Assembly: GCA_033856195.1 (NCBI GenBank)
Contig: JAWVFL010000002.1
Location: 39,662-103,661, forward strand
Length of the DNA stretch: 64,000 bases
Direction: 5' to 3'
Origin: Solirubrobacterales bacterium
Lineage (GTDB): Bacteria > Actinomycetota > Thermoleophilia > Solirubrobacterales > 70-9
A program made the position numbers and the translations under genes. The number at the start of each line of letters is the position of its first letter. The stretch's first letter is position 1. Below are positions 15,317-41,712 of this stretch, piece by piece. The notes beneath the pieces are model-generated. The model did no database searches and had not been told where the DNA came from. It worked only from the letters and a program-made list of their open reading frames with translations.

Positions 15317-15325
15317 GACGCCGCC

Positions 15326-16096
15326 ATGGCCCGGATGAGGCCGGTCTCCCACGAGGACCAGCTCACCTTGGTCGAGCACCTCGACGAGCTGCGCACCCGC
15401 ATCGTCGTCTGCCTCGTCGTCCTCGCCGTCGCCCTGGCGCTTTGCTTCTGGCAGAACCATCTGCTGCTGGAAATTGCCTCGGGGCCGCTGCCGAGCAACC
15501 ACGACAAGCTGCTCACCTTCGGCGTCACCGAGGCCTTCACGACGACGCTCACCGTTGCCACCTACGGGGCGCTGATCCTCGCGATGCCGATCCTGCTCTA
15601 CCAGCTCTACGCGTACCTCCTGCCTGCCTTCAGTGACCACGAGCGGCGCACGATCCTGCCGATCCTGCTCTTCGTCCCGGTCCTCTTCCTCGCCGGCGTC
15701 GCCTTTGCCTATTTCGTCGTGATGCCGCCGGCGGTGAAGTTCCTGCTTGGCTTCAACGACACCCAGTTCAACGTCCAAGTCCGCGCCCGCGACTACTACA
15801 GCTTCTTCTCGACCACGCTGCTGGCGGGTGGCATCGTCTTCCAGCTGCCACTGGCGATCCTCGCAGTCACCCGGCTCGGCATCGTCAGCGTCCAGCAGCT
15901 CTCGCGCAACCGCCGCTACGCCTACCTGATCATCGCCGTGATCGCCGCCGCATTGCCCGGGATCGACCCGATCTCGATGCTGATCGAGATGGTTCCTCTG
16001 CTTGTGCTGTTCGAGTTGAGTATCTTGATTGCTCGTGCTTTCGGTACGCCGAAGGCGGCGGGAGGAATGGCAAAGCCCTCAACCCAGGAGCGCTGA
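15326..16096 (+). CDS. tatC: Twin-arginine translocase TatC.
   Basis: The N-terminus LTLVEHLDELRTRI, a six-TM pattern and its position after tatA support the call. Confidence 0.92.
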   Translation: MARMRPVSHEDQLTLVEHLDELRTRIVVCLVVLAVALALCFWQNHLLLEIASGPLPSNHDKLLTFGVTEAFTTTLTVATYGALILAMPILLYQLYAYLLPAFSDHERRTILPILLFVPVLFLAGVAFAYFVVMPPAVKFLLGFNDTQFNVQVRARDYYSFFSTTLLAGGIVFQLPLAILAVTRLGIVSVQQLSRNRRYAYLIIAVIAAALPGIDPISMLIEMVPLLVLFELSILIARAFGTPKAAGGMAKPSTQER

Positions 16097-16102
16097 TTCG
16101 AG

Positions 16103-16906
16103 TTGGCGGAAAACGGCGAGCGACGGATGCTGTTCGACATCCGTGGGCGACGGAAGCACGTCGTCCGGGTCGTCTACGCGATCCTCGCGCTGCTGATGGG
16201 CGCCAGCCTCTTCCTCGTCGTCGGCCCCTTCAGCCTCGGCAGCCTGGGAGGCAGCGGCAGCTCCACCAGCGCCGGCAAGGTCCTCCAGGAACAGGCCGAA
16301 CGGACCGAAGAGAAACTGCGGCGGAATCCCGAAGACGAAGCTCTGCTGCTCGCCCTGACCCGCGCTCGCATCGGGGCCGGCAACGCCCTGACCGAAGTGA
16401 ACTCGGAAACCGGGTTGACCAGCTTCACCCCGGAAGGGCGGCAGGAACTCGAACGTGGAATCGAATCCTGGGATAGCTACCTGAAGCAGGCCAAGGAACC
16501 GAAGGCTTCCACTGCCCTGCTGGTATCGAGCAGCTACTTCGGCCTAGCCGAATCGGCGCCGAGCTTCGAAGAAGCGGTCGAGAACGTCGACGGCGCCGCC
16601 AAAACGCAACGCATCGCGGCCGAAGCGCAGCCGACGGTCAACTCGCTGACCACCCTTGCCATCTACGAGTATTACTCGGGCAACTTCACCGCCGGCGACA
16701 AGGCCGTCAAGGAAGCCGAAAGCAAAGCCCCGAGCAAGGCCGAAGCCAAGGAAATCGGCAAACAGATGGCGGAATTCCGCCAGCGCGGCAAAGCCTTCGA
16801 AGCCCAGAAGAAAGAAGTCGCCAAAGAAGAAAAGAAACTGGGCAAAGAACGCCTGCAGAACCCCCTCGGCGGCCTCTCCGGCGGCACGGGCTCCCTTGGT
16901 GAATAG
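16103..16906 (+). CDS. Membrane-anchored hypothetical protein with a Lys/Glu/Ala-rich helical ectodomain.
   Basis: It has a single N-terminal TM helix (VVYAILALLMGASLFLVVGPF) and a charged coiled-coil-like C-terminus. Confidence 0.5.
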   Translation: MAENGERRMLFDIRGRRKHVVRVVYAILALLMGASLFLVVGPFSLGSLGGSGSSTSAGKVLQEQAERTEEKLRRNPEDEALLLALTRARIGAGNALTEVNSETGLTSFTPEGRQELERGIESWDSYLKQAKEPKASTALLVSSSYFGLAESAPSFEEAVENVDGAAKTQRIAAEAQPTVNSLTTLAIYEYYSGNFTAGDKAVKEAESKAPSKAEAKEIGKQMAEFRQRGKAFEAQKKEVAKEEKKLGKERLQNPLGGLSGGTGSLGE

Positions 16907-16930: not shown

Positions 16931-17004
16931 TGGGCCGCGAAGGACTCGAACCTTCAACCTTGAGCTTAAGAGGCTCCTGCTCTAACCAGTTGAGCTAGCG
17001 GCCC
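16931..17004 (-). tRNA. tRNA-Lys (anticodon CTT); CCA is not encoded.
   Basis: The cloverleaf was folded by hand as GGGCCGC-TA-GCTC..GAGC-A-GGAGC-CTCTTAA-GCTCA-AGGTT-GAAGG-TTCGAGT-CCTTC-GCGGCCC-A. Confidence 0.9.
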
Positions 17005-17036: not shown

Positions 17037-17789
17037 TTAGCGGACGGTGCAGGCCTTTTCGACGCTGCCGTCGATGATCGTGCCCTCGGCGAAGGTGAAG
17101 CGGCCGTGAGTGCGGAAGATGCCGTCGCCGCAGCGAGCGGTGACGTAGCTGCGCTCCTTGCCGCCGAAGCGGTAGCGCTTGCCGATCGAGGCGTCGATGT
17201 GGATCAGCGATCCATGGCCGCCGGCGATCGGCGGCAGATCGACGGTGGCGCGGTAGCGGTAGCGGCCGGGCCGTTTTTCGATTGGGATCGTGATCACGAA
17301 GTTCTGCACCGCGGGAACGGAGATGCGCGCATGCATGATCACGGTTGGCTTGCCCGCCAGCCGCGGGCCGTTGAAGAAGGTCAGCAGTGAGCTGGCGAGG
17401 ACCGGGGGCTGGCCTTCGCGAGCGATCATCGCGCTGGCGTGCCCGGCGCCGACGATGGCGTTGGGACAGCGGTTACGAGCCTCCACGGGAGTAGCTTCCT
17501 CCAGCGCTGCGGGTCGGCAGACGGGGAGCCCCGCGGTCGTCAGCCTGCCGTCGCGATCGAAGTCGAGAATCAGCTGCTGCAAGGCGGCGGGAACGCTGCC
17601 GTCGACCGCCTTCAGGTCGGCGCGCCCTTTGAACTCGATCGGCGCGTAGGTGCTGCGGGGCAGGCTGTGCGGCGTGAAGCCCCCGTCCGCGGTGAGCACG
17701 AGGTTGCCGACCTTGACCAGCGCGGCGTTGGCCGCGCCCGCGAAGAGGACGCAGCAGAGCAAGGCCCCAGCTGCCAAAAGCCGCTTCAA
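17037..17789 (-). CDS. Secreted 4-Cys hypothetical protein (paralog of 40945-41712).
   Basis: It has a TTG start with a GGAGGAG RBS and the signal peptide MKRLLAAGALLCCVLFAGAANA. It aligns along its length with the product of 40945-41712. Confidence 0.6.
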   Translation of the reverse strand: MKRLLAAGALLCCVLFAGAANAALVKVGNLVLTADGGFTPHSLPRSTYAPIEFKGRADLKAVDGSVPAALQQLILDFDRDGRLTTAGLPVCRPAALEEATPVEARNRCPNAIVGAGHASAMIAREGQPPVLASSLLTFFNGPRLAGKPTVIMHARISVPAVQNFVITIPIEKRPGRYRYRATVDLPPIAGGHGSLIHIDASIGKRYRFGGKERSYVTARCGDGIFRTHGRFTFAEGTIIDGSVEKACTVR

Positions 17790-17980: not shown

Positions 17981-20900
17981 ATGCTGCGCCATCCACGCCG
18001 CGCGTTGGCGGTCGCCGCCCTCCTGATCGCGCTGCTCGCGTCCTTCGGCTTCAGCCTCGAGGACCGGCTCAGCCCGAGCACGATCGACATCGGCGGCACC
18101 TCGGTCCACGAGGCGAACGGGATGCTGAGCAGGTACTTCGGCGACTCGGCTCCCTTCGTGGTCTTCCTGCAGGGCCCGCCGGCCGCGATCGACCGGCAGG
18201 GGCCCGAGCTGGTCCGCGTGCTCCGCGAGGACCCGAAGGTGACGACGCTCTCACCCTGGGATCGCGGCAGTGTGGGACAGCTGCGCCCGAAGCCGCGCCG
18301 CGCCTTCATCCTCGTCGACTTCCACGTCGACTCCAACGCGGCGGTCGACGACAAGGTGCCGCTGCTCAACCGCATCCTCGAAGACAAGCTCCATGCCCCG
18401 GTGCGCGGTACGCAGACCGGCTTCGCCACGCTTTCGAGGTCGATCGAGGACGAATCGATCTCCAGCACCGAGCGCGCCGAGCTGATCGCCCTGCCGATTC
18501 TCCTGATCGTCCTCTTGCTCGTCTTCCGCTCTCCGATCGCCGCCGCGATCCCGCTCGGATTTGGCGCGATCGCGGTGCTCACGTCCCGTGGCCTGCTTTC
18601 GATCCTCACCAACTTCTTCGAAGTCAGCGCCCTCGCCCTGGTGGTCTGCTCGATGATGGGCCTTGCGCTCGGAGTCGATTACGCCCTTCTGCTGGTCTCC
18701 CGCTTTCGCGAGGAGCTGGCGAAAGGCGCCGACCCCGTGGACGCTGCCTGGGAGACCCGCCGCACCGCCGGGCGAACGACGGTCTTCGCCGGCAGCACCC
18801 TGGTCCTCTCGATGGTCGTGGCGCTCTTCGTCGTGCCAGGCGCACTGCTCGCCTCCCTCGCCGGGACCCTCGCCCTGGTCGTCCTCCTGACTGTCCTCGT
18901 CGCCACCCTGCTGGGGCCGCCGGTCCTGGTCCTGGCCGGCGCCAACATCGACCGTTGGCGGATCGGTTCAGCCCCGAACGGCGAACGCTCGCGGCTGATG
19001 ACGATCGTCTCCGCGGCTCTGAAGCGGCCCGTGCCGGTGTCGATAGCGATCGGCGCCGTCGTGCTCCTGCTCGCCGCACCCGCACTTGCGCTGAAGACCG
19101 GCCCCTTCAGCATCGGGCAGCTGCCAAAAGACAACTCGGCACGCAAGGACGCAGAACTGATCCAAAGCTCTGCCGGAGGGGGCTTCGAAGCCCCCTTTGT
19201 GGTCGTCGCCGCAACGCGGACGGGAACCATCACCGACGACGACAACCTCGCGGCTCTGAGTCGCTGGCAGCGCCGCATCGCCCGCACGCCGGGCGTGCAG
19301 AGCGTGGTCGGCCCGTCCCAGGTGTCGCGATCGGTGAAACCGCTGCAGAAAGGCCTCGCGGGCCTCCTTGCCTCAAACGACAAAGTGGGGCCGCTGTCGA
19401 ACCTGACCAGGGTGGGCGATGGCATGGAACGCATCGCGGACGGCGTCGCGGCGATCCGCGGTGGCCTCTCGCGGGCGACCTTCGGCGCCGCGATCTTGGC
19501 TGACGGCTCCGGCAGGGCCGAAGAAGGTGCGATCCAGATCGCCAGTGGCATCGGCCAGGCAGCCGCCGGCAGCCAGGAAGCGATCGACGCAATCGACGAA
19601 GTGGCGAAAGGGAACAAGGAACTGGCCAAGGCAAACGAAAGGGCGGCACTCGGCGGCCTGCAGATCAAGTTCGGCAGCCACGACCTGGTCCCCAACTTCA
19701 ATGTCAACGGCCTGCCGCGGGCGAACAGGCTGAAGCGCTCGCTCGACAAAGCCTCGACCGCGACCGTCCCGCAGATCCAGGCCACCGCTCAGGCCAGCGA
19801 CGAAAAGACGAAAGCCGCGCTGCAGCAGGTCGAAGGCATGACCGTCGGCAAGTCCGACCCGAACTATGCGGCGGCCCTGGACGCTCTCCGCCAGGCTTCC
19901 AGCACGGCCGCAACACTGCCGGCCGAACTCGCCCCACTGCAGGAAAGTCTCGTCGACGACGCCCACGAAGCCCAGGAAATCAAGTTCTGGATCGAAAGCA
20001 CGCTCGTCCAGATGAAGCAGCTGGCCGCCGCTTCGAAACGGCTCTACGACGGACTGAACACAATCAAAACGGGCAGCAAGAAACTCGCGACCGGCACAGC
20101 CGAACTCGACCGCGAAGTGACGAAGGAATTCGGTCAGCTCGGCTCCTTCGAGGCAGGCGCCAACGAACTGGTCTCCGGCCTGGCTCGCCTCACCGGCGGC
20201 ACGACTCAGCTCGAACAGCGGCTTGGCGAATTCTATTCCCGCTCTTACCCGGTTCAGAGCGGCGCCCGGCGGATCGCGGTGCGGGTGCAATCCCAGAGCG
20301 AGACCATCAACCGCCGCGTCGACAACATCCGCAACGTCACGCCAGGGATCTTCGACTCCGGCTACTTCGTCCTCTCCGCCCTCGACGGCACCCAGGGCCG
20401 CCTGCACGAACGCGCTTCCGAAGCGGTCGACCTGGAGCACGGCGGCCAGGCCGCCACCCTGTTGGTGATTCCCGATGATCCGCTCAACACGCCAGGCTCG
20501 ATCGCCCTCAACAAGCGCCTGGACGACGACGCGGCCGCCTTGGGCAAGGAAGCGAACCTGAAGACCGGCGTCGCCGGCAGCCCGGCGACCCTCAACACCT
20601 TCAGTCGCGTCACCAGGGACCGCATCCCGATGGTGATTGCGGCGATCACCCTGGCGACCTTCCTCGTCCTTGTCCTCGTCCTGCGATCGCTGCCGCTGGC
20701 CGCGATCGCGATCGGGCTCAACATGGCGTCGGTCGGCGTCGCCTTCGGTGTCTTGATGCTGTTGACCAACGTCCCCGACGGCTGGCCGCTTGGCGGCCGC
20801 ACCTACGTGGACGCGGTCGGGACGGTGATGATCTTCGGCGTCGTCTTTGGGCTCTCGATCGACTACGCGGTCTTCCTGCTCGTGCGCATGCGCGAGCATT

Positions 20901-21184
20901 ACGACAAACACGGCGACAACGCCGCCGCGATCGAGTTCGGGCTGGAGAAGACCGCGCGGGTGATCACCGGCGCCGCCGTGATCATGATGGCCGTCTTCAT
21001 CGCCTTCGCCGGCGCGCCGATCGCGACGGTCAGCCAGCTCGGGGTTGGCCTCACCGTCGCGGTCATCCTCGACGCCACCGTCGTGCGCATCGTCCTGCTG
21101 CCAGCCCTGATGCTGCTGGTCGGCGACAAGGTCTGGTGGCTGCCACGCCCGCTGGAGCGGGTGCTGCCGCGGCTCAACGTCTGA
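17981..21184 (+). CDS. MMPL/RND-superfamily transporter with a very long second extracytoplasmic domain.
   Basis: The two MMPL signatures are GLALGVDYALLLVSRFREEL and GLSIDYAVFLLVRMREHY. The ORF opens at 17906, but the Met at 17981 precedes the first TM helix. Confidence 0.8.
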   Translation: MLRHPRRALAVAALLIALLASFGFSLEDRLSPSTIDIGGTSVHEANGMLSRYFGDSAPFVVFLQGPPAAIDRQGPELVRVLREDPKVTTLSPWDRGSVGQLRPKPRRAFILVDFHVDSNAAVDDKVPLLNRILEDKLHAPVRGTQTGFATLSRSIEDESISSTERAELIALPILLIVLLLVFRSPIAAAIPLGFGAIAVLTSRGLLSILTNFFEVSALALVVCSMMGLALGVDYALLLVSRFREELAKGADPVDAAWETRRTAGRTTVFAGSTLVLSMVVALFVVPGALLASLAGTLALVVLLTVLVATLLGPPVLVLAGANIDRWRIGSAPNGERSRLMTIVSAALKRPVPVSIAIGAVVLLLAAPALALKTGPFSIGQLPKDNSARKDAELIQSSAGGGFEAPFVVVAATRTGTITDDDNLAALSRWQRRIARTPGVQSVVGPSQVSRSVKPLQKGLAGLLASNDKVGPLSNLTRVGDGMERIADGVAAIRGGLSRATFGAAILADGSGRAEEGAIQIASGIGQAAAGSQEAIDAIDEVAKGNKELAKANERAALGGLQIKFGSHDLVPNFNVNGLPRANRLKRSLDKASTATVPQIQATAQASDEKTKAALQQVEGMTVGKSDPNYAAALDALRQASSTAATLPAELAPLQESLVDDAHEAQEIKFWIESTLVQMKQLAAASKRLYDGLNTIKTGSKKLATGTAELDREVTKEFGQLGSFEAGANELVSGLARLTGGTTQLEQRLGEFYSRSYPVQSGARRIAVRVQSQSETINRRVDNIRNVTPGIFDSGYFVLSALDGTQGRLHERASEAVDLEHGGQAATLLVIPDDPLNTPGSIALNKRLDDDAAALGKEANLKTGVAGSPATLNTFSRVTRDRIPMVIAAITLATFLVLVLVLRSLPLAAIAIGLNMASVGVAFGVLMLLTNVPDGWPLGGRTYVDAVGTVMIFGVVFGLSIDYAVFLLVRMREHYDKHGDNAAAIEFGLEKTARVITGAAVIMMAVFIAFAGAPIATVSQLGVGLTVAVILDATVVRIVLLPALMLLVGDKVWWLPRPLERVLPRLNV

Positions 21185-21317
21185 GTTGCAAGCCCAAAGT
21201 AGCGCGTTGAATTCCAGTTAAGTCCCTGCTTGGCACGACGGTGGCGGCGGGTCGCTCGGATACGATTCTGCAGCCGTTCCACCGGATCGGAGGCCGGGGA
21301 ACCGCAAGCGACGATCC

Positions 21318-22730
21318 GTGGCTGCCAACTCTTCAGGCGAGGACAAAAGCTCGGCGCAAAGCCGGGGGGTCACCCCCGCCCGGATTGCGGTCATCGCCGT
21401 ACTCGGAATTGCCGTGGTCGCGCTCGGCTACGTGATCTTCAGCGGCAGTGGCGAACACAAGTACAACCTTCTCTTCCAGAACGCCAGCCAGCTGGTCCCC
21501 GACAACCAGGTGCTGATCGGCGGCCAACCGGTTGGCTCGGTTGAAAGCATCGAGCTGACCGACGACAACCTGGCCAAGGTCGTGGTCAGCGTCAGCCAGG
21601 AGCTGCACGAGGGCACGACGGCGACGATCCGCGCGACCTCGCTCTCCGGCGTCGCCAACCACTACGTCTCGATCAGCCCCGGCCCGAACAGCAACCCGTC
21701 GCTTGGAAACGACGGCACCCTGGGCCTGGCCTCAACCACGACCCCAGTCGACATCGACCAGCTCTTCAACACCTTCCCGGCGCCGGTGCGGCGCGGGCTC
21801 GCCCAGTTCATCGAAGGCAACGCGCAGTGGTACGCGGGTCGCGGCAAGGACGGCACCGCCAACGACACCTTCAAATACATCGGGGTCGGCTTCAACCGGG
21901 CCGGCGCCTTCGCCCATGACCTCAACGCCGACGAAAAGCTCTTCGCTCGTTTCCTGGTCAGCTCGAGCAAACTCGGCACGGCGGTCGCCGAACGCGGCGG
22001 GGAGCTCTCCAGCGCGATCGGCAATGCCAACGCAGCTTTCAACGCGATCGCGAGCCAGAACGCCGCCCTCAGCACCAGCCTGAGCCTGCTGCCTCCGACC
22101 TTCAGGCAGGCCAACACGACCTTCGTCAACCTGCGCGCGGCCCTCGACGACGTCGAACCGCTGATCAACACCTCGCGGACGGCGACCAAAGACCTGGCTC
22201 CCTTCCTCGCCGAACTGCGCCCGGTGCTCTCCAAGGCGGTCCCCGTCTTCAAGAACCTGCGCCTCACCGTGCGGCGCAAGGGCTCTGCCAACGACACGGC
22301 CGAACTGCTGGGTGTGCTGCCGGCGGTGCAGCAGCGCGCCTCGAAGGCGTTCCCGCACTCCGAAGAAGCGATCGCGGCCTTCCAGCCCAACCTCAACTTC
22401 ATTCGCGCCTACACGCCGGACCTCTTCAACGGCTTTGCCCGGCTGGGTCAGGTCAGCGCGCCCTACGACGGCAACGGCCATTACGTGCGCAGCAGCTTCA
22501 GCGACCTCAACATCTTCAACTACAACAGCGGCAGCCGCGTTCTGGAACCGATCAAACCCTCCGAACAGTACGACGCGTTCGGCGCCTCCGCGGGCGTCAA
22601 GCGTCCCTGCCCCGGCGGCGCCAGCCAACCGGCCGCCGATGGCTCCAGCCCCTTCGTCGAACCGCCGTTCAGCGGCTCCGGCGTGACCACCGACGACTGC
22701 AATCCGGCCGACGCGCCACCCGGCCCATGA
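21318..22730 (+). CDS. MCE (MlaD-domain) family protein 1 of 6.
   Basis: It has an N-terminal TM helix followed by an MCE domain (LLFQNASQLVPDNQVLIGGQPVGSVESIEL) and a helical region. Confidence 0.8.
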   Translation: MAANSSGEDKSSAQSRGVTPARIAVIAVLGIAVVALGYVIFSGSGEHKYNLLFQNASQLVPDNQVLIGGQPVGSVESIELTDDNLAKVVVSVSQELHEGTTATIRATSLSGVANHYVSISPGPNSNPSLGNDGTLGLASTTTPVDIDQLFNTFPAPVRRGLAQFIEGNAQWYAGRGKDGTANDTFKYIGVGFNRAGAFAHDLNADEKLFARFLVSSSKLGTAVAERGGELSSAIGNANAAFNAIASQNAALSTSLSLLPPTFRQANTTFVNLRAALDDVEPLINTSRTATKDLAPFLAELRPVLSKAVPVFKNLRLTVRRKGSANDTAELLGVLPAVQQRASKAFPHSEEAIAAFQPNLNFIRAYTPDLFNGFARLGQVSAPYDGNGHYVRSSFSDLNIFNYNSGSRVLEPIKPSEQYDAFGASAGVKRPCPGGASQPAADGSSPFVEPPFSGSGVTTDDCNPADAPPGP

Positions 22731-24250
22731 GAAGGGCACTCGTCATAGGCGCGCTGGTCGCGGCGGTCATCGTCGCGATCGTGCTGATCTCCTCCGGCGG
22801 CAGCGGCGGCAACGACTACGTCGTGCGGGCGATCTTCGACAGCGGTGGATTCATGGTCAAAGGCGAGCAGGTTCGGGTCGCCGGCGCCAACGTCGGCGAG
22901 ATCGAATCGGTCGGGGTCACCTTGCCGGGCGAGATCGACAGCTACGAAAACGGCAAGGAACAGGCGCTCGACGGCAAGGCCGTGATCGTGATGAACATCA
23001 CCGACGCCGGCTTCCAGGACTTCCGCAGCGACGCCAGCTGCCAGATCCGCCCGCAGTCGCTGATCGGAGAGAAGTTCGTCGACTGCCGTCCGACCCTGCC
23101 ACGGGCGCCGGGGTCGCAGCCGGCGCCGCCGCTGAAGGAGATTCCCGAAGACCAGCCCGGCGCCGGGCAGCTGCTGTTGCCGCTGGAGAACAACAGCACC
23201 AGCGTCGACCCGGACCTGATCAACGACATCAACAAACTGCCCTACGCGCAGCGCTTCCGCCTGATCTTCAACGAACTCGGCGCCGGCCTGGCCGGCCGCG
23301 GGGAGGACATCGAGGCGGTGGTCAAGCGCGCCAACCCGGCGCTGCGCGACGTCGATCGCCTGCTCGGCATCCTCGACGCACAGCGCGATCAGTTGACCCG
23401 ACTCGCGGCCGACTCCGAGCAGATCCTCGAGCCGCTCTCGCGCGAACGCGCCCACGTCGCCGGCTTCTTCACCAACTCCGGCGCAGCGGCACAGGCCACC
23501 ACCGAGCGGGGCGAAGACCTTGAAGCCTCGCTGCAGAAGTTCCCCGCCTTCCTGCGCGAGTTCCGCCTCACGATGCGCAGCCTGCAGGGCTTCTCCGATG
23601 CGGCCACCCCGACCTTCGCGGCCCTCGGCAAAGCGGCGCCCGGGTTCACCGAAGCGACCCGCCTGCTGACGCCGTTCTCGGCCGCCTCGACGGTGGCGCT
23701 GAAGTCACTTGGGACGACCGGTGAAGAAGCGGGCCCGACGCTGCGTGCGGCCGACCCGATCGTGCGCAAGACGACGGCGCTGGCCCGCACCGGGGTCAGC
23801 CCGACGACGAACCTGGCGAAGTTCCTCGCCAGCACCGAGGAAACGAAGGGCTTCGACGGGCTTGTTGACCTGATTTACAACACAACGGCGGCCACGAACG
23901 GCTTTGATCAATACGGCCACTTCACGCGCATCCTGGTCACCCTCACTAACTGCCTCGAATATGGGCTCGAAGAAAGCGGTTGCTCGGCGCAGTTCACCGG
24001 GACAAACGCGGGTGACTCGTCAGTCTCCACGGCGCAGCTGTACCGCCTGCTCCAAGAGGAGCAGGCGCGGGAAGCAGGTGAGGCGGGCGGCACACTGGCG
24101 CTGCCGAAGGCTCCGGGTGCCGGCCTTGCCCCATCCACGCCACTTACGCGCGAAGCTCCTGAAATCGCACAGGGCCGACAGCTCGAAGGGAAGAGCGCTC
24201 TGGCGGGGCCACGACAACGTGCCCTTCTCGACTACCTCCTCGGCCCATGA
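22727..24250 (+). CDS. MCE family protein 2 of 6.
   Basis: It has a TM helix plus an MCE domain (FMVKGEQVRVAGANVGEIESVGV). An ATGA overlap links it to the upstream gene. Confidence 0.8.
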   Translation: MRRALVIGALVAAVIVAIVLISSGGSGGNDYVVRAIFDSGGFMVKGEQVRVAGANVGEIESVGVTLPGEIDSYENGKEQALDGKAVIVMNITDAGFQDFRSDASCQIRPQSLIGEKFVDCRPTLPRAPGSQPAPPLKEIPEDQPGAGQLLLPLENNSTSVDPDLINDINKLPYAQRFRLIFNELGAGLAGRGEDIEAVVKRANPALRDVDRLLGILDAQRDQLTRLAADSEQILEPLSRERAHVAGFFTNSGAAAQATTERGEDLEASLQKFPAFLREFRLTMRSLQGFSDAATPTFAALGKAAPGFTEATRLLTPFSAASTVALKSLGTTGEEAGPTLRAADPIVRKTTALARTGVSPTTNLAKFLASTEETKGFDGLVDLIYNTTAATNGFDQYGHFTRILVTLTNCLEYGLEESGCSAQFTGTNAGDSSVSTAQLYRLLQEEQAREAGEAGGTLALPKAPGAGLAPSTPLTREAPEIAQGRQLEGKSALAGPRQRALLDYLLGP

Positions 24251-25686
24251 GAAATCGCAGCGGCATACAGGGAGTCGCGAGCAGCCCGGTGATCGTCGGG
24301 GCGGTGACCGTGCTGGTCATCATCGTCGCCGTCTTCCTCGCCTACAACGCCAACAACGGCCTGCCCTTCGTCTCCACCTACAACTTGAAGGCCCGGGTGC
24401 CCAACGCAAACGCGCTGGTCAAGGGCAACGAGGTGCGGATCGGCGGCGCCCGCGTCGGTGTCGTCAAGTCCGTGGTCCCGGTGCAGACCGGCAATGGCCA
24501 GGTCGCGGCCGAACTCAGCCTCAGCCTCGACAAGAACGTCGAACCGCTGCCGGACAACTCGCTGATGATCATCCGGCCCAAATCCCCACTCGGCCTCAAG
24601 TACCTGCAGATCGTTCCCGGCGACTCAAGGGAAGGCTACGCAGCCGGCGAAACGATCCCAGTCAGGGCGGCGCGGCCGGAACCGGTCGACATCGACCAGT
24701 TCTTCGACATGTTCGACGAGCGCACGCGGCAGGCGATCCAGCGCAACCTGGCGGGCTTCGGCAACGCGCTGGCGGGCCGCGGGCCGCAGATCAACAACGC
24801 CTTCATCGCCCTCCGCATGCTGGCCGAAGACAGCCAGCCGACGCTGGCTAACCTGGTTGCGCCGAGCACCGGCTTCGGCGAATTCTGGCGCGCCCTCGAG
24901 GCGCTCTCGGCGACCGTGGCGCCGGTGGCCGAGGAACAGGCGAGCATGTTCGCCGCCCTCGACCGCACCTTCGCCGCCTTCGCGCGCGTATCGCGCCCCT
25001 ACATCCAGGAAACGATCTCCAAGGGACCCGAGACGCTCGACACGGTCACCGCGGACCTGCCCGCCCTGCGCCCCTTCCTCCATGATTCGGAACGCTTCTT
25101 CGCCGCGCTGCGGCCGGGGGCGAAGGTGCTGGGAGAAACCTCGCCGACGATCGCGGCCGCGCTTCGCGCCGGCATCCCGGCGCTGAACCGCTCACCCAGC
25201 CTCAACGCCCAGCTGCCGCCCACGGCCGATGCGCTGCTTGCCTTCCAGCAGTCGACAGGCGTTTTCAATGGCCTCGACCTGCTGATCGACACCAACAACG
25301 TGCTCGGTCCGGCGATCCGCTTCATCGCCCCCGCACAGACCACTTGCAACTACCTCACCATCGCCTTCCGCAATCTTTCCAACTCATCCAGCGAAGACAA
25401 CGGACTGGGCGGTTGGTTCAATGCGATCTCCTTCCAGTCTCCTGAAGGGCCGAACAGCGAGGGCGGCCAAGCCTCGGCACCGGCCAACGGCGGCTCGACC
25501 AACCGGTTCAACCACCTCCACTCAAATCCCTACCCCAATACAGCGTCTCCGGGTCAGCCAAAAGAGTGTGAAGCTGGCAACGAGCGTTACGAAACCGGCA
25601 TCACCCGAATCGGCAACACGCCGCGCAACGACGGCATCGTCACATCCGGCCAGACCAAGAAGCAGCGCGGGGAAGAGGAAAAGTAA
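24247..25686 (+). CDS. MCE family protein 3 of 6.
   Basis: It has a TM helix plus an MCE domain (LVKGNEVRIGGARVGVVKSV). An ATGA overlap links it to the upstream gene. Confidence 0.8.
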   Translation: MRNRSGIQGVASSPVIVGAVTVLVIIVAVFLAYNANNGLPFVSTYNLKARVPNANALVKGNEVRIGGARVGVVKSVVPVQTGNGQVAAELSLSLDKNVEPLPDNSLMIIRPKSPLGLKYLQIVPGDSREGYAAGETIPVRAARPEPVDIDQFFDMFDERTRQAIQRNLAGFGNALAGRGPQINNAFIALRMLAEDSQPTLANLVAPSTGFGEFWRALEALSATVAPVAEEQASMFAALDRTFAAFARVSRPYIQETISKGPETLDTVTADLPALRPFLHDSERFFAALRPGAKVLGETSPTIAAALRAGIPALNRSPSLNAQLPPTADALLAFQQSTGVFNGLDLLIDTNNVLGPAIRFIAPAQTTCNYLTIAFRNLSNSSSEDNGLGGWFNAISFQSPEGPNSEGGQASAPANGGSTNRFNHLHSNPYPNTASPGQPKECEAGNERYETGITRIGNTPRNDGIVTSGQTKKQRGEEEK

Positions 25687-27194
25687 TGGGTCGGCTGCCG
25701 GAGAGAGACATGCGGGCGGGGGCGACCGACAGTCGCTTCAAGTGGCGGCCGAGCAACGCCCTGATTGCGGTGATCTTCCTGCTCATCTTCACGGTCGGGC
25801 CCTACCTTGCCTTCACCGGCCACGTGCCCTTCACCAGCTACGGCTACGAGCTCAAGGCGACCTTCGGCAACGGAGCCAACATCTCCACCAACTCGCCGGT
25901 TCGGATCGCCGGCGTCGACGTCGGCCGCGTGATCGCCACCGAACGCGATGGCGACGCGACGACCGTTACCTTCACGGTCGAAGGCAAAGGCCGGCCGATC
26001 CACGAGGATGCCTTCGCCGCGATCCGGCCGCGGATCTTCCTCGAGGGCAACTTCTTCATCGATCTCTCGCCCGGCAGCCCCAGCGCAGCCGAGCTGGACA
26101 GCGACGCGACGATCCCGGTCAGCCGCACGTCCACCTGGGTGCAGATCGATGAGGTCCTCACCGCGCTGCAGGCGCCGGTACGAGCCGACCTCAGTCACCT
26201 GCTGGAGAGCTACGGCACGGCGCTGACCCATAAGCCGACCGCAGCCGAAGACGCCGGCCAGCTGCCCGAGGTGCACGGCAAGAGCGGCGCCGAGGGGCTC
26301 AACGGAGGCTTCCGCTACGGCGGCGACGCCGGTCGCTACAGCGCCCAGGTCACCAACGCGCTGCTCGGCACTCAGCCGCACGACCTTTCGCGGCTGATCG
26401 CCGGCACCGGTCGCACCTTTGCGGCGCTCGCCCAGAACGAGGAAGACCTGAAGGGGCTGATCGTCAACTTCGACGTCTTCACCGGCGCGCTCGCTTCCCA
26501 GTCGGCCAATCTCTCGACCACGATCCATCGTCTGGCGCCGACGCTGAAGGAATTCCACGGTTCGCTGGTCAGTCTCAACCAGGCGCTGCCGCCGCTGCGG
26601 GCCTGGGCGATCGAGCTGAACCCGGCAGTCGCCGAGCTGCCCGACTTGATCAGCGCCGGCCGCCCCTGGATCAAGCAGGCCCGGCCGCTGCTCTCCGGCA
26701 AGGAGGCCGGCGGGACCGCGAAGCTGCTGCGCGAAGCGACCCCGGGGCTCGCCGGCGCCGCTCAGGCGGGCAAGGCGATCGCCTTGCCCCAGCTCAACCG
26801 AATCAGCCTTTGCACGACCAAGGTCATCGTCCCGACCGGCAATCAGACGATCGAAGACCAGTTCAGCACCGGCGGCCCCAACTATCGTGAGTTCCTCTAC
26901 GCCCTCACCGACTTCGCCGGCTGGGGGCAGAACTTCGACGGCAATGGACCCTTCGTGCGGGTGCAGCCCGGCGGTGGTGATCAATTGGTCGAACTGAAGA
27001 ACCCGGAAGGGAACCTGACTACGGACCAACGAACCTTCGCCCACACGATCGCTCCCCCGATCGGCACACAGCCACGGCTCGGTGGCCGCCCGCCAAAGAA
27101 GCCCGACGTGCGCTGCGATAGCAATCCAGTGCCGAACGTAAATGGCCATCTTGGCCAGGTCGGCGCCCCAACTCCGGCGGCGGTGAGCCCATGA
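25686..27194 (+). CDS. MCE family protein 4 of 6.
   Basis: It has a TM helix plus an MCE domain (NISTNSPVRIAGVDVGRVIATE). A TAATG overlap links it to the upstream gene. Confidence 0.8.
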   Translation: MGRLPERDMRAGATDSRFKWRPSNALIAVIFLLIFTVGPYLAFTGHVPFTSYGYELKATFGNGANISTNSPVRIAGVDVGRVIATERDGDATTVTFTVEGKGRPIHEDAFAAIRPRIFLEGNFFIDLSPGSPSAAELDSDATIPVSRTSTWVQIDEVLTALQAPVRADLSHLLESYGTALTHKPTAAEDAGQLPEVHGKSGAEGLNGGFRYGGDAGRYSAQVTNALLGTQPHDLSRLIAGTGRTFAALAQNEEDLKGLIVNFDVFTGALASQSANLSTTIHRLAPTLKEFHGSLVSLNQALPPLRAWAIELNPAVAELPDLISAGRPWIKQARPLLSGKEAGGTAKLLREATPGLAGAAQAGKAIALPQLNRISLCTTKVIVPTGNQTIEDQFSTGGPNYREFLYALTDFAGWGQNFDGNGPFVRVQPGGGDQLVELKNPEGNLTTDQRTFAHTIAPPIGTQPRLGGRPPKKPDVRCDSNPVPNVNGHLGQVGAPTPAAVSP

Positions 27195-28582
27195 GTCGTT
27201 GGTCGCATTTCCGCTCTTCCCTTTCCCGCCAGTCCCGGGGGCGCAGCAAGGACACGATCGCGATCGTCATCCTCGCTGCCGCAGGGGTCGTGATGACGCT
27301 CTGGATCTTCACCCAGCAGAAAGCCTCGCTGCCGGCCTGGGTCCCGGCCGTCGGCGAAGAGTTCGCCCACGTCACGGGGGAGTTCACTACCGCTCAAGCG
27401 GTGACCCCGGGCCAGGGCCAGGCCGTCGACATCGCCGGCATCCAGGTCGGCAAGGTCACCTCGGTCGACCTCGAAGATGGCCACGCGGTCGTTGGGATGG
27501 ACATCGAACCGAAGTACATGGACCTGATCCATCCCGACGCGAGCCTGCTGCTGCGGCCGAAAACGAACCTCAACGACATGGTCGTCGAGGTAGATCCCGG
27601 CAATGCCAAGGGCCATATCGAGGATGGCTACAACTTCCCGCTCTCGCGCACGGAACCGAACGTCAACCTCGACGCTTTCCTCGCCACCCTCGACGCCGAC
27701 ACGCGCCAGTACATCCAGCTGCTCGTCGCCGGCGGCGCCCAGGGAATCGGCGGCCGCGGCCGCCAGCTCGGCAACGCCCTCCGTCGCCTGCAGCCCTTCG
27801 CCCATTACATTGCCGACCTCAACAAAGCCGTGGCCACGCGCCGCGTCGCGCTCGCCCGGGTGATCCACGACTTCGGGCTGCTGACCACCGAACTGGGCCG
27901 TCACGACGCCGAGATCGAACGCTGGGTCACGGCCTCCAAGGGGGCGCTCGGCAACTTCGCCAACCAGCAGAGCTCGATCCAGGAAATCCTCACCGAATTC
28001 CCCTCGACGCTGACCACGGCGGAATCGGCCTTCGCCAGCGCCAACCGCTTCTCGCAAGCGGCGCGCCCGGCGCTGCTCGGCCTGATCCCGCAGGCGCAGG
28101 CGCTGAAGCCGGCGCTGAAGGCCAACGAGCGGCTCTTCGAGCAGACCACCGTGCCGATCCGCGATCAGATCCGGCCCTTCACGCGTCAAATTCGCCCTGT
28201 CCTCACCCACGCCAAGCAGGGCTCCGCCCAGTTCAGCAAGACGGTGCGCGGCTTCGGCAACTCGCTCGCCGCCTTCAACAGCTTCCTCAACGAGCTCGCC
28301 TACAAGCCAAAGGGCTCACGACAGAGCTACCTCTTCTACCTGCCGTGGCTCAACCATGACGTAAACGCCAGCTTCAACCTCGATGACCCTGCCGGTCCGA
28401 TTGGTAGGGGACTGACACTTATCTCCTGCAACGGCACCTCGCTCGCCTATCCGTTCGCCAGCGCCAGGCCCTATGTCCAGGCGCTGCTAAGAGGCGGAAA
28501 CATTCCGCGCGCCGACCAACTGCCGGTTGTTCCGGAGGATCCCTCATTCCCCGGCCACGGGTGCGGACCCGGAGCAGAATGA
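27191..28582 (+). CDS. MCE family protein 5 of 6.
   Basis: It has a TM helix plus an MCE domain (VTPGQGQAVDIAGIQVGKVTSVDL). An ATGA overlap links it to the upstream gene. Confidence 0.8.
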   Translation: MSRWSHFRSSLSRQSRGRSKDTIAIVILAAAGVVMTLWIFTQQKASLPAWVPAVGEEFAHVTGEFTTAQAVTPGQGQAVDIAGIQVGKVTSVDLEDGHAVVGMDIEPKYMDLIHPDASLLLRPKTNLNDMVVEVDPGNAKGHIEDGYNFPLSRTEPNVNLDAFLATLDADTRQYIQLLVAGGAQGIGGRGRQLGNALRRLQPFAHYIADLNKAVATRRVALARVIHDFGLLTTELGRHDAEIERWVTASKGALGNFANQQSSIQEILTEFPSTLTTAESAFASANRFSQAARPALLGLIPQAQALKPALKANERLFEQTTVPIRDQIRPFTRQIRPVLTHAKQGSAQFSKTVRGFGNSLAAFNSFLNELAYKPKGSRQSYLFYLPWLNHDVNASFNLDDPAGPIGRGLTLISCNGTSLAYPFASARPYVQALLRGGNIPRADQLPVVPEDPSFPGHGCGPGAE

Positions 28583-30150
28583 GTAAGCGCGCCCCCAGCA
28601 CAACCCAGCTCCTCGTGATCGCCGGCTTCGCGCTGTCCTGCTTCGGCATCCTGCTCTTCCTCTGGATCACCTTCGGCGGGCCGACCCCATTCAAGGCGAA
28701 GCCCTACGAGATCAACGTGCCCTTCAAGGAGGCGACCCAGCTCGCCCAGCAGTCCGACGTGCGGATCTCCGGCGTCTCGGTCGGCAAGGTGCAGGACATC
28801 GTCCTGGCGCCCGACGGCGAACAGGCGATGGCCAAGGTCGACATCGACGACAAGTACGGGCCACTGCCGGCAAACACCCGCGCCGTGTTGCGCACGAAGA
28901 CGCTGCTCGGCGAGACCTACATCGAGCTCACCCCGGGCGACCGCGACGGCCCTAAGCTTGCCGACGGCGGCATCCTTCCCCGTGCCCAGATCGCCGAATC
29001 GGTGCAGCTCGACGAGATCTTCCGCACCTTCAACGCAAAAACCCGTGCCGCCTTCCAGAGCTGGCAGCAGGAAGCTGCCCTGTCGATCGAGGGGCAGGGG
29101 GCAAGCCTCTCCTACGCCTTCGGCGAGCTCGAACCCACGTTCACCCAGTTCGATCGCCTCTTTCGCGTCCTCGACAGCCAGCGCCTCGCGGTCAAGACGC
29201 TCTTCCGCAACGGCGCCACCTCGCTGCGCGCTCTGCGCGGCCGCCAGGGAGAGCTCGCCGCCCTGATCCAGAGCTCGAACGCGGTTTTCAGCACCACCGC
29301 CGCTCGCGACCGCGAGATCGAAGCGCTCTTCCGCGCCTTCCCCACCTTCCAGGACGAGTCAAGGCTGACGCTCGAGCGCCTGAAGAGCTTCTCGGTCAAC
29401 GCCGACCCGGTGATGAAGCAGCTCGTTCCGGTCGCCGAACAGCTCTCGCCGACCCTGATCGCCTTCTCCAGGTTTGCGCCGGAAGCGAAGGGCTTCTTCG
29501 AAGGGCTCGAACCCGTCATCGACCGCGCCCCTACCGGCTTCCCCGCCGTGCGCAAGCTCTTCCGGGACGAGTTTCCGCCGCTGCTGCGCGCCATCGATCC
29601 GTTCCTGCGCAACCTCAACCCTGTCCTCACCGGTCTCGGCCTCTACAAGCATGAGCTGACCGCGACGATGGGCAATATCGCCTCGATGACCAATGCCGAA
29701 TTGGTAGACGAAAATGCTGCGGGTGAGAAGCTCCACTACCTGCGCGCTATGGGTCCCTTCACCCCGGAATCACTGGCCACCTATCCCAGCCGCACGACCA
29801 TCGGGCGATCAAACGCCTATCCGCAGCCTTTGGCGACGAAAAGTCTCGCCACCGGATTCCCGAGCTTCGACACTCGCGGCTGCACATCGGGCGTGACAGC
29901 AACTCTCGATCCCGAAACCTACAAAAATCCGGTGTTCGCGGAACGCTCCAAACAGGCGAACAAGACACCCGAAGAGAACGAAAAATTCTCTAAGTCCTTC
30001 TTCGATGCGCTGAAAAAGTACGCCTTCGCCGAACAAACCGACTCGGCGTTGGTCCCGGCGCCTGGCTGCTATCAACAGGCGCCCTTCAACCCGATCGGCA
30101 GAAGCGGCCCGTCGACGACCTACCAGCACACGTTCGAACAGAGCGAATAG
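28579..30150 (+). CDS. MCE family protein 6 of 6.
   Basis: The ATG at 28579 overlaps the upstream TGA. It has a TM helix plus an MCE domain (LAQQSDVRISGVSVGKVQDIVL). Confidence 0.8.
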   Translation: MSKRAPSTTQLLVIAGFALSCFGILLFLWITFGGPTPFKAKPYEINVPFKEATQLAQQSDVRISGVSVGKVQDIVLAPDGEQAMAKVDIDDKYGPLPANTRAVLRTKTLLGETYIELTPGDRDGPKLADGGILPRAQIAESVQLDEIFRTFNAKTRAAFQSWQQEAALSIEGQGASLSYAFGELEPTFTQFDRLFRVLDSQRLAVKTLFRNGATSLRALRGRQGELAALIQSSNAVFSTTAARDREIEALFRAFPTFQDESRLTLERLKSFSVNADPVMKQLVPVAEQLSPTLIAFSRFAPEAKGFFEGLEPVIDRAPTGFPAVRKLFRDEFPPLLRAIDPFLRNLNPVLTGLGLYKHELTATMGNIASMTNAELVDENAAGEKLHYLRAMGPFTPESLATYPSRTTIGRSNAYPQPLATKSLATGFPSFDTRGCTSGVTATLDPETYKNPVFAERSKQANKTPEENEKFSKSFFDALKKYAFAEQTDSALVPAPGCYQQAPFNPIGRSGPSTTYQHTFEQSE

Positions 30151-30793
30151 CTCTCGCGGCGCTAACTCTCGGTTTGCGAGATCGCAGAAGTGGTTGGAGC
30201 CTGTCCGGAGGCTGCCGGTTTTTATCCCGCAGTAAGAAAACGTTGTCATCAACGATCGCTGATCGGGTTAAATGGCCCGTGAGGATTCGTACTCTCTGGC
30301 TACGATCATCTGCGATTCCGACGATGATCCTAGTCGGGGGATCTTGGTGCATCTGCCCATCAATCACTACGCTCGCAAGTCCATGCTTAATCACGACTGA
30401 CGTTGGAGCGCATACCTGACCGATGCTCCCGTCTGCTTCTTTGCTCACGATGCACAAAAAGCCGTCTCCTGGAATGACCCAAAATCCCCGCTGAGATCGA
30501 ATTGGTATGCGCTGGGCAAAGGCAAAATTTATACCATAGGTTGAGGCGGGTATCACCGCTCTAACATCTGCGGGCAGCCCCTCCGGCGCGGTATCGAGAA
30601 GCGAAAAGCTACGACGAAGCTTTGTTTCGACATGCTGCACGATTGGGAGATGCATAGAAATAGCATCCCTACCAGAGGGAGGGTGTTCAGTTAGGACCGG
30701 CCATTCCTGGGAGGATCCGCAACCTGCGAAAATCGCAAAAGTCACCAGGCCGACGCTAATGCGCCAGCCCGGTGACTTTTGAGGGGAGTCCAC
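30086..30793 (-). CDS. Putative lipoprotein, hypothetical (in the low-G+C island).
   Basis: A GTG at 30791-30793 gives a signal peptide ending in the lipobox FAGC. The 3' tail overlaps the end of the last MCE gene. The start and the stop are both uncertain. Confidence 0.4.
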   Translation of the reverse strand: MDSPQKSPGWRISVGLVTFAIFAGCGSSQEWPVLTEHPPSGRDAISMHLPIVQHVETKLRRSFSLLDTAPEGLPADVRAVIPASTYGINFAFAQRIPIRSQRGFWVIPGDGFLCIVSKEADGSIGQVCAPTSVVIKHGLASVVIDGQMHQDPPTRIIVGIADDRSQRVRILTGHLTRSAIVDDNVFLLRDKNRQPPDRLQPLLRSRKPRVSAARAIRSVRTCAGRSSTGRFCRSG

Positions 30794-30822
30794 CTTGCCC
30801 TTAATGTAAAAGAGGGGTAGCG

Positions 30823-31335
30823 CTATCCACAGGTGATGCAGGTCTGCGTCCCACTTACATGAGCCCCTGATCCAGTTGTGTTGTTCCGAAGGACGCCCCG
30901 TCGCCAAACCCCATCCTCGGCGAACCACTTTACTCCGGTGTAGTTATTCGAACCGGGGGTACATAGCCAGCTAGAGCTCACGTCGCCTTTATTGTTCAGG
31001 ACACTGACACAAGCACTGTGCTCGTAGCTCTGCCCCGATACGGCCCAAAGATAGCCCCCGAGATTAGCTGCACACTTATCCCCAGCTTGACCGTACGGCG
31101 CCACCCACGAGTAGCTGCAAATTGACATGTTGCCTTGGACGTCTGCCTGGGCCCTAGTCAAAGGCCCGGTCGAAAGCCAGACGGTGGCGAGAAGCGCCAG
31201 AATTGCCGAAGCGATCAGCCTATACCTCCGAAAGTGGCTAGGAACGTGACCCGAAACGTCGGTAAGTTGATTCAACTGAATTCCTTTCAGTAGAGGGAGC
31301 TTTGACCCTCTCTGATATGAGTTACTGAAACGCAT
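30823..31335 (-). CDS. Small secreted Cys-rich protein, hypothetical.
   Basis: It has a TM/signal segment (LIASAILALLATVWLSTGPLTRAQA). The mature part is about 105 aa with 7 Cys and ends CITCG. The gene has lower G+C. Confidence 0.5.
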   Translation of the reverse strand: MRFSNSYQRGSKLPLLKGIQLNQLTDVSGHVPSHFRRYRLIASAILALLATVWLSTGPLTRAQADVQGNMSICSYSWVAPYGQAGDKCAANLGGYLWAVSGQSYEHSACVSVLNNKGDVSSSWLCTPGSNNYTGVKWFAEDGVWRRGVLRNNTTGSGAHVSGTQTCITCG

Positions 31336-31374
31336 TGCGATCTGGCAATTCTCCGCCGTTGAAACTTGACGATG

Positions 31375-32786: not shown

Positions 32787-32795
32787 CTGCCTATC

Positions 32796-40944: not shown

Positions 40945-41712
40945 ATGCGCAAGCGCTTGATTACGACACTGGCCCTGGGGGCGGTACTTGCCCTCGCGGC
41001 GGCCGGAATAGCTACAGCAGAGAAGCCCACCATCGTCCAGGCTGGGAACCTGAAGTTGACCCTGAACGGGAGCTTCAGCCCAAAGAAGCTGCCGAAGAGT
41101 GGGAAGGCCGCCCCGATCACGCTGAACGTCAGCGGCAAGATCGAGACGACCGACGGCACGCACGCGCCGGCCCTGAAAGAAGTCGTCGTCGAAACCGACA
41201 AGAACGGCTCGATCGATGTCAAGGGCTTGCCGACCTGCACCTCGGGGAAACTGCAGGCTCAGGACACCAGCCATGCGGAAGCGATCTGCAGGAAGGCGAT
41301 CATCGGCAGCGGCATCACCAACGTCGAGGTCGAATTCCCCGAATCGAATCCGTTCATCGCGAAAAGTAAATTGCTCGCCTTCAACGGTGGGACCAGCGGT
41401 GGTAAGACGACGATCTTCATCCACGCTTACCTGACCTCTCCGGTCTCGGCGGCGGTTGTCACCACGGTCAAAATCTCGAAAATCCACAACGGTCGCTACG
41501 GCACGAAATCGGTTGCTTCGGTGCCGAAGATCGCTGGTGGGTACGGCTCGGTAAAGGAATTTGCACTGACCTTCGACCGCGGCTACAAAAACACACCGTT
41601 CCTGTTTGCCAAGTGCCCCGACGGTCACCTCAACGCCAAGGCCACGTCCGTCTTCGCCGACGGCACGCGCCTGACGGGCACCTTCGTCCGCTCCTGCACC
41701 CCGAAGGGCTAA
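40945..41712 (+). CDS. Secreted 4-Cys hypothetical protein (paralog of 17037-17789, Lys-rich, lower G+C).
   Basis: The signal peptide is MRKRLITTLALGAVLALAAAGIATA. It is colinear with the other copy (GNL.LT..G.F.P..LP, GLP.C, G.YG/GS). Confidence 0.6.
   Translation: MRKRLITTLALGAVLALAAAGIATAEKPTIVQAGNLKLTLNGSFSPKKLPKSGKAAPITLNVSGKIETTDGTHAPALKEVVVETDKNGSIDVKGLPTCTSGKLQAQDTSHAEAICRKAIIGSGITNVEVEFPESNPFIAKSKLLAFNGGTSGGKTTIFIHAYLTSPVSAAVVTTVKISKIHNGRYGTKSVASVPKIAGGYGSVKEFALTFDRGYKNTPFLFAKCPDGHLNAKATSVFADGTRLTGTFVRSCTPKG

Follow-up and report, generated by a model that had tools for sequence, protein, structure and literature searches.

A six-gene MCE cluster beside an MMPL gene in Solirubrobacterales: a sextet lineage without permease genes in cis, probably served by an ABC engine encoded elsewhere

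Lipids and sterols cross complex bacterial envelopes mainly, as far as is known, through MCE systems. To our knowledge, every described actinobacterial Mce system combines two permease genes and six MCE genes in one operon. Here we consider a departure from this layout in a stretch of 64,000 nucleotides from a Solirubrobacterales bacterium (assembly GCA_033856195.1, contig JAWVFL010000002.1, positions 39,662 to 103,661; hereafter the window), where the gene of an MMPL-family transporter is followed by six MCE genes without accompanying permease genes. An earlier note on this DNA had suggested that the MCE tunnel is driven by the MMPL pump in place of an ABC importer; comparison with related loci points instead to a derived sextet lineage that probably still relies on an ABC engine. 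The canonical eight-gene module is the only one described in a 2026 review (PMC13492129). YrbE was present in every mce-containing Actinomycetales genome surveyed by Casali and Riley, and the ATPase MceG/Mkl is unlinked in mycobacteria (PMC1810536). Multiple MlaD and MlaE homologues of unknown function have been noted in monoderm Solirubrobacterales (PMC10665443).

The cluster lies in high-GC DNA (65-72%) and comprises the features below. The coordinates differ in places: the longest open reading frames of the MMPL gene and of MCE6 start at 17906 and 28561, the JGI calls for these two genes at 17981 and 28579, and the JGI call for MCE4 at 25710.

17981..21184 (longest open reading frame from 17906), plus strand: MMPL-family RND transporter gene, 1067 aa; Pfam PF03176 in two stretches, E 2e-60
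21201..21317, plus strand: conserved region 5' of the mce sextet, a probable control or leader region; alignment of 16 clade members
21318..22730, plus strand: MCE1, 470 aa; transmembrane (TM) helix at residues 23-42, MCE barrel, long helical region, Cys-containing C-terminal part
22727..24250, plus strand: MCE2, 507 aa; ATGA overlap with MCE1
24247..25686, plus strand: MCE3, 479 aa; TM helix at residues 13-32, nt 24283-24342, SPVIVGAVTVLVIIVAVFLAYNAN
25686..27194, plus strand: MCE4, 502 aa; TAATG junction; alternative start 25710
27191..28582, plus strand: MCE5, 463 aa
28579..30150 (longest open reading frame from 28561), plus strand: MCE6, 523 aa; TM helix at nt 28609-28668, GFALSCFGILLFLWITFGG
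30198..30223, plus strand: terminator-like hairpin with a T-run, 48 nt 3' of the MCE6 stop codon

Each of the six MCE reading frames carries one MlaD/MCE domain (PF02470, E 3e-7 to 4e-20) and a single N-terminal hydrophobic helix, and the MMPL protein has 13 hydrophobic segments. The junctions from mce1 to mce6 read ATGA, ATGA, TAATG, ATGA and ATGA, in agreement with the earlier description of an MMPL gene followed on the plus strand by six translationally coupled MCE genes. Among the Pfam-scanned multi-TM reading frames of the whole window there is no MlaE domain (PF02405). A YrbE/MlaE profile built on Rhodococcus, Mycobacterium and E. coli sequences and run with --max against all six-frame reading frames of the window and of 80 related loci (1.64 Mb in total) reached an E of 2.1 at best. 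MceG/MlaF queries against the same 1.64 Mb matched solely the ABC-2 ATPase of the window at 5755-6576, with no Mkl/MlaF-type ATPase beside any cluster. Both further statements of the earlier note, that the 64 kb hold no MlaE-like permease and that their only ABC pair is of the ABC-2 type, are borne out, the pair lying at 4403-6576. The 80 species-level loci, which we refer to as the window clade, were collected in a genome-collection scan with MCE1 (62-94% identity) and stem nearly all from uncultured Solirubrobacterales (Thermoleophilia) with chromosomes of ~2.6-3.0 Mb; in none of these species does yrbE or mceG occur within 10 kb of the cluster.

How do the six proteins relate to the described Mce families? 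All of them align to TIGR00996 (Mtu_fam_mce) over ~260-290 positions, scoring 59.9-117.7 bits, under the curated cut-off of 140.5, and none of the six matches Mce4_CUP1. An AF2 model of MCE1, computed from a 76-sequence alignment, consists of a TM helix, an MCE barrel (pLDDT > 90) and a long helical region, and its top Foldseek matches are the M. smegmatis Mce1 subunits (8fed_B/C/D/A, E 4e-14), followed by MlaD. The locus thus offers the six tandem genes with TM, MCE and helical regions that are expected of an actinobacterial Mce transporter, and lacks the two yrbE genes that stand directly upstream of mceA in an actinobacterial mce operon. Positional orthology to MceA-F is absent as well: phmmer scores reach at most 54 bits and show no diagonal pattern against the Rhodococcus and M. 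branderi operons, which rules out the sextet as a positional orthologue of Mycobacteriales MceA-F.

Positional orthologues were found among other, distant sextets. A search of representatives clustered at 50% identity returned 360 clusters at E <= 1e-30, among them full-length relatives with as little as 31% identity; the genomic context of several was looked up. The six loci concerned are listed with their identity to window MCE1; sec250 denotes a family of secreted proteins of ~250 aa to which we return below.

L085, 40%: MlaE-MlaE-ABC ATPase-MCEx6-MMPL
L091, 44%: PucR-type regulator, then MlaE-MlaE-ABC ATPase-MCEx6
L092, 40%: TetR, then MlaE-MlaE-MCE and onwards
L086, 52%: MCEx6 alone, with three sec250 paralogs downstream
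L089, 45%: M23 peptidase, 835-aa protein, MCEx6
L093, 37%: MCE, 855-aa SLT/M23 protein, MCEx5

In all six, the best tblastn matches of MCE1-6 fall on the diagonal at 35-55% identity. The same position-by-position sextet is therefore present in three yrbE-linked loci (L085, L091 and L092), and this orthology marks the family as an ancestrally ABC-linked Mce system; judging by these gene orders, the ancestral operon of the Solirubrobacterales sextet family is yrbEA-yrbEB-mceG-mce1-6. The window sextet displays the positional orthology and the TM signatures of this family, and is missing the upstream yrbEA-yrbEB-mceG genes of its yrbE-linked form, here called type A. In a neighbour-joining tree of concatenated MCE1-5 the window clade groups with L086 and L089 at 100% bootstrap, apart from the yrbE-linked sextets, with the placement of L093 unresolved. 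On the evidence of this tree the yrbE-less sextet, here called type B, is an old, monophyletic and derived variant without ABC genes in cis.

What could be the inner-membrane partner of a type B hexamer? One indication comes from the parts of the MCE proteins that have been retained. Within yrbE-linked sextets, the TM identity is 0.86 for MCE3 and 0.81 for MCE6, compared with ~0.6 for the MCE domains and 0.37-0.49 for the TM helices of MCE1, 2, 4 and 5. Between the window and canonical sextets, the TM helices of MCE3 and MCE6 retain identities of 0.68 and 0.69, the MCE domains of the same proteins 0.52 and 0.48, and the TM helices of the other four 0.23-0.27. The TM helices are the best-conserved parts of MCE3 and MCE6, and the motifs ..VFLAYNAN (MCE3) and GFALSCFG..LFLW..FGG (MCE6) are intact in the window proteins. 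YrbEA of type A loci is 84-92% identical while MCE1 of the same loci is only 40-60% identical. In the cryo-EM structure of Mce1, the MCE TM helices pack around YrbE1AB (PMC9882608). The retention of exactly the MCE3 and MCE6 helices is what would be expected if the hexamer still docks on a near-invariant YrbEAB.

Permease modules that lack a hexamer exist in the same order. Among 31 metagenome loci found through YrbEA and possessing enough downstream DNA, 24 have the arrangement yrbEA-yrbEB-mceG-mce1-6, four continue from yrbEA-yrbEB-mceG straight into an HAE3-type MMPL gene and contain no MCE gene, two place a single short MCE gene ahead of the HAE3-type MMPL gene, and in one (L121) yrbEA is followed by a different MMPL gene. 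L103 and L121, in which yrbEA stands beside MMPL genes, look rearranged. The single MCE gene between mceG and the HAE3-type MMPL gene in L123 (12693-13565) and L137 (13196-13939) encodes 248-291 aa and resembles an Mla-like variant with one MCE protein. MCE-less yrbEA-yrbEB-mceG operons are carried on many Solirubrobacterales contigs of metagenome-assembled genomes, 262 kb to 1.6 Mb long, and adjoin a type III glutamine synthetase gene that is also a neighbour of the canonical L091 and of the yrbE-less L089. The operons listed here run yrbEA-yrbEB-mceG-HAE3-type MMPL/RND (911-933 aa) and are followed by AhpC/TSA-like and B3/4-domain genes.

L164, 3904-9370: MCE-less operon
L168, 9315-15339: MCE-less operon
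L174-L176, 10001-15289: MCE-less operon
L188, 8001-13782: MCE-less operon

Operons that combine an MlaEF-type ABC module with an RND protein gene and lack MlaD seem not to have been described. Since MCE-less ABC modules and ABC-less MCE sextets are both common in one order, the two fit the notion of split systems.

We hypothesize, with moderate confidence, that the type B hexamer belongs to such a split system and is served by an ABC engine encoded elsewhere, the MMPL protein not being its energiser. The six genes would give rise to a heterohexameric Mce-type ring and needle, built of subunits that each have a single TM helix, an MCE domain and a long helical region. Using its conserved MCE3 and MCE6 TM helices, the hexamer would dock on a YrbEA/YrbEB/MceG engine provided from another place in the genome, either by a yrbEA-yrbEB-mceG operon without MCE genes or by a complete type A operon, and this supply in trans may be likened to the unlinked MceG of mycobacterial Mce systems. 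The MMPL protein would be a proton-motive-force-type RND lipid transporter, perhaps acting on the same envelope lipids without energising the tunnel. Gene content, orthology, synteny, the conservation of the TM helices and the occurrence of MCE-less ABC operons in the order are observed; that the hexamer docks physically, that this genome has the ABC genes and what the sec250 proteins do are inferred.

Several points weigh against an engine in trans. We know of no precedent for Mce permeases acting in this manner, every described mce operon having its own yrbEAB. Among the ~190 YrbEA clusters nearest to two Solirubrobacterales queries, some of them expanded, none lies on a window-clade contig, which is a weak negative as contig data cover representatives only. 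In tetranucleotide composition the sampled MCE-less operons stand at distances of 2.2-2.4 from the window, the clade itself spanning 1.1-2.7; this is not close, and it does not discriminate. The MMPL gene adjoins the sextet in all 73 clade loci whose contig reaches far enough upstream, the set to which all counts at this junction refer, and RND/MMPL genes recur beside Mce ABC modules elsewhere in the order, so that a functional tie of some kind to RND proteins is conceivable. An orphan yrbEAB-mkl locus had been named by the earlier note as the kind of finding that would undermine the MMPL-driven tunnel; such loci prove to be widespread in the order, with none placed in a window-clade genome.

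The yrbE-less lineages are set apart by the sec250 family itself, which comprises secreted proteins with four invariant Cys, present in one to five copies per locus and without a Pfam or NCBIfam match. Its profile is found in 75 of the 80 window-clade loci and in L086 (three copies), L089 and L093 (two each), and gives no match in 27 yrbE-linked loci (430 kb). An AF2 model, built from the two window paralogs only, reached pLDDT 41 and was unusable. The window copies and those of the distant loci are the following.

Window 17037..17789, minus strand: sec250, with signal peptide and four invariant Cys, divergent from the MMPL gene
Window 40945..41709, plus strand: second sec250-family paralog, 33% identical to the first window copy
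L086 12625-14942, minus strand: sec250 copies
L089 18943-21325, plus strand: sec250 copies
L093 2454-3227 and 4852-5718, plus strand: sec250 copies

By this profile search, the yrbE-less sextet lineages have an accessory family of their own. Its occurrence with every one of them and its absence from the 27 yrbE-linked loci also lend themselves to another reading, namely that the type B sextet operates with neither an ABC nor an RND inner-membrane transporter, as a wall-spanning lipid conduit or anchor formed with the sec250-family proteins. The age and monophyly of type B would suit such a conduit, as would the peptidoglycan hydrolase-like genes that head the sextets of L089 and L093. We nevertheless consider it quite unlikely: strong conservation is limited to the TM helices of MCE3 and MCE6, and these are shared with ABC-linked sextets, which implies a conserved intramembrane partner. 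Nor do we know of any energy-independent MCE system.

In these two loci a gene for a protein of 835-855 aa (L089 7326-9833, L093 7432-9999) lies directly before mce1; in L093 the mce2 orthologue precedes this gene. The L093 protein (855 aa) carries peptidoglycan-hydrolase domains of the SLT and M23 types; its L089 counterpart (835 aa) has no Pfam match. These proteins may serve in wall remodelling for the needle in a monoderm. The MCE2 orthologue of L089 (11323-13014) contains a collagen-like triple-helix repeat near its C-terminus.

The possibility raised by the earlier note, that the adjacent proton-driven MMPL protein couples to the MCE hexamer and replaces YrbEAB and MceG, here taken with a genome devoid of yrbE and mceG, has the neighbourhood of the two units on its side. 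The MMPL gene stands directly upstream on the same strand, the gap of 133 nt contains no terminator-like hairpin, and the absence of MlaE and MceG genes from the 64 kb and from the 10 kb around the cluster in 80 species, as well as the failure to locate YrbEA on a window-clade contig, is what this coupling would predict. The protein also keeps both of its Asp-Tyr motifs and has a very long coiled-coil-like ectodomain. The gene order polyprenyl synthase, TatA/TatC, 267-aa protein, sec250 (minus strand), MMPL, MCE1-6 is kept in every locus with enough contig. The cluster arrangement is thus not chance, and the synteny survey called for in the earlier note does find MMPL-mce1-6 preserved throughout one clade (73 of 73 loci). 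Because the neighbourhood is syntenic as a whole, however, the adjacency is inherited within the clade and is not independent evidence of coupling.

The junction itself speaks for two separate units. In 41 of the 73 loci the MMPL stop codon lies at least 400 nt from the mce1 start, and in 38 of those 41 (38/73 overall) an opposite-strand sec250 paralog stands in between. The interval holds a DDE-type, insertion-sequence-type transposase-like reading frame in L026 (8117-9007) and another reading frame in L050 (7945-8997), so that insertions at this point are tolerated; an opposite-strand gene or an insertion element separates the units in most relatives. The ~115 nt directly 5' of mce1 are near-invariant in 16 aligned clade members, irrespective of whether the MMPL gene or an opposite-strand gene lies upstream and although the clade proteins are only 62-94% identical. 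Invariant blocks within 21201-21317 are GCGTTGAaTTCCAGTTAAGTCCC, CTCGGATACGATT and GCGTTGAATTCCAGTTAAGTCCC. The covariation term of this leader is -0.05, which gives no support for an RNA structure, and a consensus promoter scan of 15-31.5 kb of the window returned no match. The region is probably a promoter/operator or a leader, and its constancy whatever lies upstream indicates that the sextet has its own conserved control region. Compared with the relatives, the tight MMPL-mce1 spacing of the window is a derived state, and the MMPL gene is most likely a clade-specific neighbour transcribed separately from the sextet. A terminator or an independent promoter between the two had been regarded beforehand as an argument against coupling: there is no such terminator in the gap, and the conserved mce1 leader together with the opposite-strand genes in 38 of 73 loci counts as independent transcription.

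Beyond the junction, the nearest other yrbE-less sextets, L086 and L089, have no MMPL neighbour, so that among type B sextets this neighbour is restricted to the window clade. The sextet moreover descends from ABC-linked sextets and retains their MCE3 and MCE6 TM signatures. Together with the intervening genes and the separate leader, these observations lead us to abandon the MMPL-driven tunnel as the preferred explanation and to regard a full replacement of the ABC engine by the MMPL protein as decidedly unlikely. A related proposal holds that the clade is without any MlaE/YrbE, that the type B hexamer and the sec250 proteins use MMPL as their inner-membrane partner, and that RND/MMPL proteins are integral to Mce-type transport in the order, for which the yrbEA-yrbEB-mceG-HAE3 operons give a hint. 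It strikes us as improbable; if true, it would be the first case of an RND protein powering an MCE tunnel or being physically coupled to it. To a system without an ABC motor we accord a low, though not negligible, probability.

The recurrence of RND genes beside Mce modules suggests yet another arrangement, in which the ABC engine, one or more RND proteins and the MCE sextet form one functional system in the order, with the RND/MMPL protein an accessory and not a substitute. HAE3-type MMPL genes lie 3-20 nt behind mceG or mce6 in operons of the form yrbEA-yrbEB-mceG-MMPL, with mce1-6, one mce gene or none placed before the MMPL gene, and the MMPL gene beside the type B sextet of the window is of another subfamily. 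The two kinds of MMPL genes are not orthologous, however: the MMPL downstream of the L085 sextet is an HAE3-type RND that aligns with the window protein at a BLASTP E of 0.05, and no MMPL gene was seen within the available DNA at the 24 canonical loci. MMPL genes are frequent in actinobacterial envelope loci, and the two associations may be coincidence. We therefore hold such a tripartite system to be unlikely and retain the split system with an engine in trans.

The MMPL protein itself has ~12-13 TM helices and an ectodomain insert of ~450 aa (residues ~400-850) with xxxLxxG heptad repeats and TIGR03057 repeats. Alignment places Asp-Tyr motifs in both halves, GVDYAL and SIDYAV, which we take, from what is known of MmpL3, to be at the equivalents of TM4 and TM10. 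Its matches in PDB are MmpL3 (6n40, E 3e-52, over both membrane halves) and MmpL4/5 (E 1e-22), and a PDB sequence search with the insert gave no match. With two MMPL halves, ~12 TM helices and the Asp-Tyr pairs it has the make-up of an MMPL-family RND transporter, and belongs to none of the curated NCBIfam equivalogs: it scores 196 bits against a cut-off of 1400 for MmpL3, 27.6 against 752 for HpnN and 167 against 875 for actII, and its HAE3 match is also far under the cut-off.

In the literature searched we found neither yrbE-less sextets nor the sec250 family nor a linkage of MMPL genes with Mce modules described, and the earlier impression that the architecture had not been reported holds in that no paper on such a locus was found. 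What is new, as far as these comparisons go, is a monophyletic lineage of yrbE-less sextets accompanied by an uncharacterised secreted family of ~250 aa. A widespread soil lineage has long kept the genes of a hexamer without permease genes in cis. The coexistence of MCE-less permease/ATPase operons and permease-less hexamers in one order suggests modularity: a single ABC engine may serve separate and perhaps exchangeable needles. Two leads follow from the data, the secreted family found only with yrbE-less sextets and the repeated linkage between RND/MMPL genes and Mce modules, and the locus raises the question of what role an MCE needle plays in a monoderm bacterium.

The surroundings of the cluster show several further peculiarities. 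In all relatives the cluster is closely preceded by the genes tatA and tatC and that of the 267-aa protein, which is single-TM, charged and coiled-coil-like, and a tRNA gene is located between this group and sec250 (window 15065-16906 and 16931-17004, minus strand, for the whole set); an Rfam search of 14-34 kb of the window yielded nothing except a tRNA. Downstream of mce6, positions 30001-34000 have a GC content of 0.57-0.58 as compared with ~0.67 and contain a 280-aa reading frame, a PucR-type and an ArsR-type regulator gene. These three genes are missing in most relatives, where DnaB sits nearer to mce6, and the low-GC stretch may be an insertion. The DnaB helicase gene (33915-36608) is split by an intein with a LAGLIDADG endonuclease domain. 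At 11312-12911 lies a split, b6-like cytochrome b gene; the gene after it joins a subunit IV-like part to a c-type cytochrome domain.

How, then, does the locus stand among the known systems? The window MMPL protein resembles mycobacterial MmpL3, MmpL4 and MmpL5 in its two MMPL halves, its Asp-Tyr proton-relay motifs and the large insert in the second extracytoplasmic domain, and differs from them in scoring far under the equivalog cut-offs, in having a heptad-repeat insert without a match in PDB and in the absence of a recognisable MmpS-like gene. The likeness to E. coli MlaFEDB lies in the MCE fold, which matches MlaD with a Foldseek E of 1e-9 and a TM-score of ~0.65 (normalised to the MlaD chain). 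In that complex the MCE TM helices dock on the MlaE-type permease, MlaD is a short homohexamer without a needle, and mlaE and mlaF belong to the same operon. LetAB and PqiABC, in which single polypeptides with several MCE domains are paired with LetA or PqiA, set a precedent for MCE tunnels whose membrane partner is no ABC transporter; the window proteins have one MCE domain each, the partner under the MMPL proposal would be an RND protein, and no PqiA/LetA-type family occurs among the Pfam matches of the window multi-TM reading frames, one of which (240 aa) has no match. With the mycobacterial and other actinobacterial Mce1-4 systems (YrbEAB-MceA-F with MceG; PDB 8FED, 8FEE and 8FEF) the window shares the six tandem coupled genes and the domain layout, and it departs from them in the lack of yrbEA and yrbEB in cis, the TIGR00996 scores under the cut-off, the missing MceA-F orthology, the sec250-family neighbours and the monoderm Thermoleophilia host. 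Its closest counterparts are the type A operons (L085, L091, L094 and others), to which it is joined by gene-by-gene orthology of MCE1-6 and by the MCE3 and MCE6 TM signatures, and from which the window lineage is distinguished by the loss from the locus of the three ABC genes, the association with sec250 and the MMPL neighbour.

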